Shown here piece by piece: positions 42,001 through 45,000 of a stretch of 64,000 nucleotides of DNA. Made by a program: the position numbers. The stretch comes from Candidatus Cloacimonadales bacterium (GTDB lineage Bacteria; Cloacimonadota; Cloacimonadia; Cloacimonadales; JAFGVF01), in assembly GCA_963663475.2 (NCBI GenBank), contig CAXXJV010000001.1:2560001-2624000 (forward strand). Reading direction: 5' to 3'. Position 1 is the first letter of the stretch. Each line of letters starts with the position of its first letter.

Positions 42001-45000
42001 GACTCTTTGGTCCCATAAGTGCTTGGGTATAATCCTCCATTATCATTAATGCTATTTGAATGAATCCCCCATATATTGTTTCTAACCATTTGCAATGCTG
42101 AAGGACTAATACTCCCAATAAAGGTGTTATAGGCATTTCTTTTTTCACTTAATGATGCTAGCATAACTTTTTCTTCGACCATGTTCTGAAATGGCATACC
42201 TATTGTGTTTAACAAATTCGAAGCTACATCCTCAGGGAGATCATCAATCATATCATAAATGTGTTTTAAATCCATTTGGAGATTTTTATTTAATAGTGCC
42301 CCTCGATGAGGTGAGTCTAAAGTTAATAATTTATCCACATTGTGACCGAGCGAGACATCTTCTAACCAAGCTAATGCAAAACGTCCTAATACACCACCCA
42401 TTGATGTACCAATTACAATAAAAGGTTCTTCTTGAAAATTATCAATAAATTTAATAGCTTTCGCTGTAGCCATTGATAAAATCCGCAAATCTGCTTTAGG
42501 ATTTGTAAAATTTAAATACCAAATATTCCCATCTATCTCATTTAAATCAAAATTATCAAATGCATATCCTGGATTATATTTATATACTGGATCCCAACCT
42601 TCAATAATAAGAACATTATTGCTAAATCCTCGATCTAAAAAATGAAGACTTGAATAATTATTTTCCCAGTGGTCTATATCAAATAATTCATCCACTATAG
42701 TAACAGTATTATAGTAAACACCTTCGACATCACCACTTAAATTATACACAGTCAATTCTTGTTCGTACTGACCTGCAGCAGAATAAGAATGGGATTTACT
42801 AAAGTTCATGTTACTTTCATTAGTTGATGTATCATCTCCCCAATCAATATCCCAAAGATATATTGCAGGAGCTAGTCCGATATTATAGTACATACAATGA
42901 GCATAAAATGGTGTATTATAATAACCTATTTGCCAATTTTCTGGATCATTAGTATTCTCATCTGTTGAATAGACTCTCCAACCATCATATTTGGTAGAAT
43001 TATTTGCATTATACTGTACTTCATTATAACCTAGTGAGTAATAATAATCAGATAGATTTAATGGTGCAGATAAACTACTAGTATCACTTCTAAACAATTG
43101 TTCATTAACACCATGTTCAAGAAAAGGATTATAGCCTGGTAAAATCTGAGCTAAAGCCAATATTGGGAATAAAGCAATTAGTAAAAAAAAGGTTTTTTTC
43201 ATTATGGTTCCTTTGCTAAATAAGATTAAGTTTACTTTTTCACTTAATAATCAACCATACTTCAATGATTGATATGATATTTACATTCTGTTTGATTAAT
43301 TTAATATCTCAAACAATCACACCTACAACTTTTACATGTTAATTTTTCTTTCCAATAATCTGTTTTATGTTTTTTCTCTTAGATTATCATGAAATAGCAT
43401 TATTGTTCATCATCTACATAGAATACCTCCCCATCAATAATTACGAGAATTATATCACCATTTTCATTTCTTAAAACAACTTGATAATCAACATTTTCAA
43501 TTTCCGCTAACGTTAAATGTCTATATTCTGTAAATTCTCCTTGACTTGAATATACAGATGTACAAAAAATGACAATTGTAAGAAATAACACGATTTTTTT
43601 CATTATGTGACTCCCAAATAAATTATTATATATATTAGAGTCAAAAAACATGTTATTTTCGTTGAAAATCTTATATATATATGAGTTACATAATATTACA
43701 AAGGTGCAGTTAAATGAATTTTAATTATGACAAAGTATTAGATTATTCTTTAAAAGTTGCATATAAATACATTAACGATAAAGACAAAGCTCATGATATT
43801 GCTCAGCTAACAGCTATCCAATTATTTGTTAATAGTGACAAGATTGATCCTGAAAAGTTAGACAATTGGTTATATACAGTAACTAAAAACTTCTGTTTTA
43901 AACAATTCAAGATATCTCAGAAAAGTAAGGAATTAATATTTGAACCTTCTTTTTTAGAGAATATCGATATTGATGATTTAGAAAAGGATGAGTACAAATT
44001 TGATTTTTATTCTTATGACTTCATCAAAAATCCTGACCAAAAATTATTACACAAATACTATAACGAACATTATGAGATTAGTCAGTTAGCCCAAGCTTAT
44101 AAGATAAAAAAGAAGAAGTTAAAAAATAAAATATATAACTTAACTCAGGAAATCATCTTATTCAAGAAGATGCACGATCATGTTTTTATTAGTTCAATTT
44201 CAGGAACAAAACTCCATAATGGTATCTATTATTTTCTAAGAAAATTTATCAAGGCCTTAAATGAAAATAAATTAGTTGAATTTTCTAAATCACTTTCTGA
44301 TTGTAAAATAAATGACATTATCAATGATATTCATATTAAAACTCTAAAAAAAATCACTATTGACTTTTGTTCAGAAGAATACTATAAAGGAATAATATTT
44401 TACAGAAATTTTGCTAATGAAATAAAAGTATTTATTTTAAAATTTCAATTAGAGAATGATGCGAAAATTAAGTTAGTTGAATTCCCTATCCTTCCAAAGT
44501 ATGTTGTTTCTCACTCAGCTAATGATATTCCAGAAGAGTTGAAGAGTGCCCAAAAAGTAAATAAGAAAGGTAAAACATCAGTAGATAGACAATTGTTCAA
44601 AGATTTAGTTAAGCTGAATAAAATTAAAATTGTTCAAGATATAGAGGGCATTTTCAAAGATTAACACCAACTCTTTTCATCTTTTTTTTGTTGCTTTTAA
44701 TTAAATTGATAAATATTTACTTTAGAGTTGTAGAACAAAATTATTTATCAAGTTGTTAACCTAACCTAATCCTGTTTCTAAGACTGTAGCACTAATACTA
44801 ATACTGATAATTAGCAATATTATTATTAATATATTAAGTTTATACATAAAGTATCCTAGTTCAGAATCATTTTTCATTTTTATCTTTTCATTTTCCTGCG
44901 AGGGCTAATATTGATTAGCCCCTACATTATTGTAATTCGTGAAATTAGTGGATAGATTACTTCATCACACAACATTTAGTTATAACAGAATGCCCTTGTC

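Follow-up and report, generated by a model that had tools for sequence, protein, structure and literature searches.

An ECF-type sigma factor family with an NTF2/SnoaL-like extension, likely undescribed, is coupled to a predicted secreted microprotein

The window analysed here, a 64-kb stretch of the genome that we call G000, contains two of 11 paralogous cassettes in which an ECF-type sigma factor with an NTF2/SnoaL-like extension is paired with a predicted secreted microprotein. The initial annotation had presented these genes as an undescribed ECF-type group coupled to such a microprotein; our analysis supports this, and that the group is undescribed is likely. The architecture, the coupling, selection on all three genes (sigma, microprotein and a leaderless peptide) and a predicted promoter that covaries with the sigma are supported by sequence. 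The sigma factor very probably transcribes the unit formed by the microprotein gene and the secreted-protein genes behind it. By analogy, and with a probability of roughly 0.4, we propose that the C-terminal hairpin of the microprotein serves as an export-coupled negative-feedback ligand of the sigma.

Results

Architecture and class of the sigma factor

The first sigma gene of the window (43714..44664, + strand) encodes 316 aa and was defined by its ORF, a profile and an AlphaFold model (pLDDT 85.5). Residues 1-155 match ECF sigmas (Foldseek probability 1.0), with region 2 at about 1-75 and region 4 at about 95-155; they are followed by an NTF2/SnoaL-like domain at residues 157-261 (coding stretch 44182..44496, + strand, from the structure match) and by a beta-alpha tail at 262-316. 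The domain aligns with NTF2-like folds over 90-105 residues with VIA-align Z scores of 8-9.6 and an rmsd of about 3, a middling score that is common to many NTF2 proteins. The model thus agrees with the combination of ECF core and NTF2/SnoaL-like domain proposed in the initial annotation. The extension is recognised through structure and not through sequence; no Pfam SnoaL family was found for the 62 members among the 25 of 39 families listed, and the 55-residue tail had no match of its own.

As annotated before, Pfam detects Sigma70_r2 alone in the window copy, and no NCBIfam family reaches its cut-off. Region 4 is divergent, with Pfam r4_2 found in 8 of 62 members at E values below 0.004 at best. 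A profile of 47 sequences matches SigW, RpoE and SigL over positions 7-155 (E 7e-13 to 6e-10), and profile and Foldseek matches together give the layout of group 4, in which regions 2 and 4 are present and regions 1.2 and 3 are absent. The earlier count of 11 paralogs was reproduced in G000, where 10 copies are full-length and one lies in four pieces, at 23-70% identity. The second window copy (52945..53886, + strand, 313 aa) is intact. Among the loci fetched for comparison (L-numbers), sigma genes occur as tandem pairs in L015, L016, L019, L044, L048 and L068, and L015 and L016 share one divergent microprotein.

The fusion of an ECF sigma with a SnoaL-like extension is an already known architecture (PMC7826278), described in the available sections of PMC7826278 and PMC8999054 for ECF41, ECF56, ECF205, ECF294 and ECF295. 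The present family is likely an undescribed ECF group, set apart from ECF41 and ECF56 by proxy profiles and the WLPEP motif. Assignment to ECF41 was rejected because this motif, sought in the sigma2-sigma4 linker, occurs in 0 of 62 members, because the neighbouring genes differ, and because TIGR02957, which we take to be the ECF41 profile, matches in five genomes with at best 47.6 bits against a cut-off of 323 and over the core only (positions up to 167 of 281). The SigJ chain matches the sigma profile over residues 2-73 only. ECF56 was rejected as well, since TIGR02960, presumably the ECF56 profile, reaches at best 33.4 bits against 265 over short core stretches. SigG1 was the one Foldseek match spanning the whole sigma length, weakly (probability 0.80, E 0.023, TM 0.21).

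We found no description of the family in the literature searched, a body that included few of the subscription papers. "Cloacimon" is absent from the main text of the ECF classification and from part of one supplement, and sigma factors are not mentioned in the available part of PMC8542988. A scan with a single protein beyond the phylum returned the query itself and four core-only matches, and is too weak to show absence.

The microprotein and its leaderless copy

The first window microprotein (43400..43603, - strand) has 67 aa, with a predicted Sec signal peptide at about residues 1-19 whose cleavage site was placed by eye. Its start at 43603, which leaves a gap of 110 nt to the sigma gene, follows from alignment with the paralogs; an 83-aa ORF starting at 43651 was rejected on the same alignment. 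The second microprotein gene (52609..52833, - strand) can be followed for about 25 codons, after which unrelated sequence, in part duplicated, interrupts it.

Family members are 59-110 aa long (median 72). A crude signal-peptide test is passed by 57 of 62, and the main product is therefore expected to exit the cytoplasm, where the sigma sits. The mature part is acidic, the last 45 residues having a median charge of -7. Many members have a Gln at the presumed cleavage site or directly beside it, which in the available text of PMC5837995 is the Q-rule of Bacteroidetes, a rule not demonstrated for the host phylum. Four of five close pairs show purifying selection, with a pN/pS of about 0.2 (the fifth pair has 0.7), and the window copy differs from that of L002 at pS 0.20 and pN 0.04. 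In the structural model (pLDDT 83), the protein consists of a strand, a short helix and a three-strand meander, the mature part being predicted to fold as a 48-aa domain, and the hydrophobic pattern of the meander is conserved over 62 sequences.

Searches with the microprotein yielded little: the best fold match had a Z of 3.5, no Foldseek match fell under E 0.8, the best E in a PDB profile search was 0.033, matches in the ESM Atlas (0.76 and 0.75) were to unnamed clusters only, and a word-index search found one relative. The RsgI_N OB-like domain was seen at E 0.011 in one of 62 members, and a search of G000 with PF12791 was empty at E 1. That the microprotein mimics the T9SS C-terminal domain was not supported, its core model matching no CTD protein in G000, and a microprotein-like repeat in the sigma tail was rejected at a probability of 0.3% in a profile-profile comparison. 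As a separate observation, several loci (L006, L009, L010, L011, L014, L017, L081 and L084) encode a second small secreted protein of 106-145 aa, either behind the microprotein or at the start of the cargo block.

In one clade, an extra leaderless ORF of 24-36 aa, usually with a ribosome-binding site, copies the C-terminal strands or hairpin of the microprotein. This leaderless hairpin peptide is new in the present analysis. It lies behind the microprotein in L072, L074, L076, L078, L079, L083 and L085, and was seen in 11 of 20 further loci; L077 and L081 each carry three peptide copies with repeated promoters. Its loop has, by eye, the length of that in its own family's microprotein, and pS/pN values of 0.90/0.20 and 0.71/0.09 indicate purifying selection. 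No convincing leaderless peptide was found in G000. Two microproteins of one genus, from two genomes (L018:875-1177 and L020:1145-1387), have a hydrophilic N-terminus in place of the signal peptide. The selection on the leaderless peptide, its recurrence in the further loci and these two proteins point to a cytoplasmic role.

Extent and orientation of the pairing

The sigma profile matches 112 of the 232 genomes of the phylum (E 1e-20) and the microprotein profile 102 (E 1e-3). Both occur in 87 genomes, the sigma alone in 25, the microprotein alone in 15 and neither in 105, in a sample whose related genomes are not independent. A core microprotein model built without the signal peptide finds nine places in G000, every one beside a sigma paralog (next best E 0.91), in line with the earlier report that microprotein matches all adjoin sigmas. 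The spacing of about 90-115 bp given before was also recovered, the gaps in G000 being 92-111 nt wherever a start can be recognised (10 pairs) and 117 nt to a remnant ORF.

The pairing is not, as had been stated, always head-to-head: one clade has the microprotein downstream and co-directional, and in 22-27 of 93 near-full-length sigma ORFs none lies within 1.6 kb. The core model gives 56 divergent, 9 downstream co-directional, 1 upstream and 27 with none, and a wider, partly circular model gives 55, 14, 2 and 22, respectively. These 14 co-directional cases form one clade (support 97) in a quick sigma tree, and the pairing persists through the change of orientation. In the reverse direction, among 21 loci picked by a microprotein match, a sigma was adjacent in 10, the contig ended in 6 and there was no sigma in 5. 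Coupling is therefore wide, neither universal nor always head-to-head. The five sigma-less loci among these 15 testable ones mostly have the microprotein at the head of cargo genes, and in L141 the microprotein is repeated at a second cargo block; its tie to promoter and cargo is thus no weaker than its tie to the sigma.

Several further features of these loci were noted. Two relic cassettes in G000, at C1:2089151 (+) and C1:297058 (+), keep the candidate promoter and have lost sigma and microprotein; the former precedes a CTD gene by 470 nt, and the corresponding locus of G039 (L005) still has the cassette. Related short repeats, possibly a miniature insertion element, occur where microprotein genes are broken or lost (C1:281400-281900, C1:297100-297400 and C1:2089200-2089300). 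Response-regulator genes recur beside the cassette in several families (L018, L020, L029, L030, L074, L077, L081 and L151).

Cargo genes

Behind the first window microprotein lies a gene for a 1556-aa secreted protein with an alpha/beta-hydrolase-like region and a T9SS C-terminal sorting domain (38532..43202, - strand), followed by two paralogous genes for secreted proteins of 815-816 aa with CTD-type ends (33438..38446, - strand). The second cassette is followed by three paralogous CTD-type cargo genes of 816-818 aa (44957..52543, - strand). The five near-identical secreted CTD proteins of 815-818 aa in these two blocks are apparent mosaics of two N-terminal types. CTD calls were made on the C-terminal motif by eye, and Pfam, run on three window cargo proteins, scored Por_Secre_tail at 42.7 bits in the first cargo and at 26.5 and 25.7 bits, just under the cut-off of 27, in the two others.

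The 11 cassettes of G000 head CTD-type genes in six cases, a radical SAM and ABC exporter operon, a secreted alpha/beta hydrolase and other secreted proteins in one case each, and nothing in two. The earlier description of the operons as mostly T9SS cargo or radical-SAM genes stands for the CTD-type cargo (6 of 11) and fails for radical SAM, found in just 1 of 11. In that operon (C1:1542078-1547430), a radical SAM protein, the ABC exporter and a 690-aa protein of no family are encoded behind a microprotein. SprA and PorV are present in G000; GldM and GldN models found no match there, with uninformative controls. The available text of PMC11285876 mentions a T9SS in the host phylum as a possibility only.

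The assembly at positions 42000-44905 was confirmed by one contig from a DNA run. The segment at 44740-44950, which separates the sigma gene from the cargo gene that converges on it, is multi-copy in that run, with a depth of 240-490 against 70. An RNA check of the locus with two doubtful runs returned scattered short contigs only.

A predicted promoter that covaries with sigma region 4

Upstream of divergent microproteins we found an ECF-like bipartite motif composed of GTC(A/C)C, a T-rich spacer of 14-16 nt and a G(T/A)(A/C)TAT-like element; it lies 25-45 nt ahead of the microprotein start, and 25 divergent loci score. Position 141 of the sigma, in region 4, varies together with the -35 element: in the 23 rows of the printed table where the pattern was readable, Ser accompanies GTCAC in 10 of 10 and Tyr or Phe accompanies GTCCC in 13 of 13. 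The label changes four times on the tree, including within the close pairs L076/L085 and L065/L070-71. Of 24 further loci, 14 scored 15 or more and had a readable residue. All of these, most of them from one clade, are in agreement (12 with Ser, 2 with Tyr), the other 10 loci being cut, unread or low-scoring; the residues of L166, L178 and L179, read later, also fit. Because the -35 base tracks a region 4 residue, the neighbouring sigma probably recognises the microprotein promoter. Regulation of the divergent operon, previously deduced from gene order, thereby gains support from the motif and its covariation.

A 14-nt pattern found 13 sites in five genomes against one for a reversed control. 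Eight are at known loci, four are full sites about 300 nt before signal-peptide genes elsewhere, and one is inside a GTPase gene; the motif thus appears to mark secreted-protein genes away from the cassettes as well (four of the five extra sites). For another G000 subclade, a loose pattern gave 77 mostly chance matches and was discarded. The loose motif scan also showed a repeated element of identical sequence at no fewer than seven G000 sites (e.g., C1:329866 and C1:515895).

The window's own clade is not scored by the promoter matrix of its relatives and has a different conserved element, so the covariation, observed in relatives, extends to the window by homology. Six aligned upstream regions place the candidate bipartite promoter of the microprotein-cargo transcript, in its clade-specific form, at 43636..43668 (- strand), its function being inferred; the candidate of the second cassette is at 52868..52899 (- strand). 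The element occurs five times in G000, four times at cassettes and once ahead of a CTD gene whose G039 locus still carries a cassette.

Asymmetric loss of the two genes

In a hand tally of 35 loci from the two nearest genera, all chosen by sigma, an intact sigma accompanies a broken or missing microprotein in 13-15 cases, and the sigma is broken in two. The sigma gene is five times longer than the microprotein gene, yet is less often broken; two of the breaks are homopolymer indels and may be assembly errors. A whole-genome microprotein search gave no unpaired copy in those genomes among the matches listed, which were all but the 20 weakest. Between L038 and L153, in both of which the microprotein is truncated, the sigma has a dN/dS of 0.22. 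The asymmetry is easier to reconcile with a dispensable brake than with an obligate activator, but a dispensable accessory, or paralogs that complement the loss, would account for it too.

Discussion

The reading to which we gave a probability of roughly 0.4 runs as follows. A dedicated ECF-type sigma very probably transcribes a unit in which the microprotein comes first and genes of secreted, mostly T9SS-type, proteins follow. It has no membrane anti-sigma and, in the manner of ECF41, is probably gated through the NTF2-like domain and the tail. While export runs, the microprotein would be removed from the cytoplasm through Sec; when retained there, it, or the leaderless peptide, would bind and damp the sigma. 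A cytoplasmic target for the hairpin is suggested by the conserved leaderless twin, the sigma being the sole conserved cytoplasmic neighbour, and the negative sign of the feedback by the many intact sigmas with a lost microprotein against two broken sigmas. Evidence against this reading comes from the signal peptides of most microproteins, from G000, where no convincing leaderless peptide was seen, and from the association of the microprotein with promoter and cargo at loci that have no sigma. FlgM and sigma-28 provide the model for negative feedback tied to export: FlgM is a small exported protein, encoded under its own sigma-28 and proposed to report export. It uses the flagellar export route, carries no signal peptide and is, to our knowledge, unrelated in sequence to the microprotein. 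That the sigma is the receptor of its own exported peptide, the hairpin or its 24-36 aa twin docking on the NTF2-like domain and tail, is a tentative proposal to which we would give somewhat less than even odds.

Somewhat unlikely, yet to be weighed seriously, is a co-regulated periplasmic accessory, the microprotein serving the cargo or the secretion route as a chaperone, an inhibitor or an adaptor, and the NTF2-like domain gating the sigma, either on its own or in response to a small molecule, as has been proposed for ECF41. The prevalence of signal peptides, the place of the microprotein atop cargo blocks without a sigma and its frequent loss beside intact sigmas would all suit such a role, and ECF41 likewise works with a regulatory domain fused to the sigma and with a single target operon (available sections of PMC3426412). 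It would leave the conserved leaderless copy of the hairpin unexplained, however, and the microprotein is kept beside the sigma whatever follows, be it CTD cargo, radical SAM, a response regulator or nothing.

We regard as improbable a quorum-sensing circuit of the Rgg/SHP kind, in which the microprotein would be processed, re-imported and activate the sigma via its C-terminal domain in positive feedback on secreted enzymes, with the leaderless peptide as a short, LCP-like form. The divergent layout, shared intergenic region and downstream operon match Rgg/SHP groups I and II, and the leaderless peptides match LCPs, as portrayed in the available text of PMC13361665; the radical SAM and exporter operon of one G000 locus, the triplicated peptides of L077 and L081 and the peptide binders among the NTF2 fold matches also agree. 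Against it, sigmas that have lost their cognate microprotein remain intact, with purifying selection still acting on them, the predicted 48-aa fold is large for oligopeptide import across two membranes, and no conserved protease or importer lies beside the loci (G000 neighbours and fetched loci). Least probable, with only a slight chance, is an action of the short ORFs in cis as leader or attenuator peptides governing read-through into the cargo genes. The microprotein is first in the transcript and GC-rich hairpins, seen by eye, lie behind the leaderless peptide at several loci, but the hydrophobic pattern of a folded meander is conserved throughout the family and no terminator-like site lies behind the window microprotein.

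Among known systems, ECF41 (SigJ, Ecf41Bli) shares the sigma 2-4 core with a fused SnoaL/NTF2-like extension in about 300 aa, a small regulon and the absence of a membrane anti-sigma. Its promoter, TGTCACA-16-CGTC in the available sections of PMC3426412, resembles the ancestral motif of the present family, with a similar -35 in one clade, GTCCC in others, a different element in the window clade and a more AT-rich -10. Unlike ECF41, the present sigma has an extra 55-aa tail and lacks WLPEP, and where ECF41 has CMD, oxidoreductase or epimerase neighbours, we see, by eye in G000 and the fetched loci, the microprotein and secreted cargo. ECF56 (SigG1-RsfG) combines a SnoaL extension with a separate small sigma-binding partner encoded next door (available part of PMC7730460); RsfG, which is co-transcribed, has a size of about 17 kDa, whereas the partner here is a microprotein with a signal peptide. 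ECF205, ECF294 and ECF295 have SnoaL-like extensions of 120-150 aa (PMC7826278 and PMC8999054, available sections); ECF205 and ECF294 are known from Actinobacteria, Proteobacteria and Acidobacteria.

Rgg/SHP and LCP systems resemble the cassette in their divergent regulator and short-peptide genes, a peptide gene that is first in the regulated operon, and leaderless variants; according to the same part of PMC13361665, their regulator is not a sigma, the peptides have 8-23 aa and the hosts are Gram-positive. In PorA-PorXY-SigP, an exported protein likewise feeds back on a T9SS-linked ECF sigma, but through a two-component system and with PorA being a CTD protein (available sections of PMC7712824).

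The extension-bearing ECF sigma variant with its unusual peptide partner is real and apparently undescribed. The ligand of SnoaL/NTF2 extensions is, in the available text of PMC8999054, an open question for ECF56, ECF205, ECF294 and ECF295. The present family supplies a genetically encoded candidate ligand of 24-48 residues together with a predicted promoter, which makes this question directly testable in a heterologous host. It also offers a natural series that ties one region 4 residue to one -35 base, adds conserved genes below the size range of standard annotation and, for an anaerobic phylum that has been little studied, provides a first candidate for a regulator of secreted-protein genes. 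If the sigma is the receptor of its own exported peptide, expression of secreted proteins would be set by export capacity or cell density, and a peptide-gated one-component sigma system would be present in about half of the genomes of one phylum.
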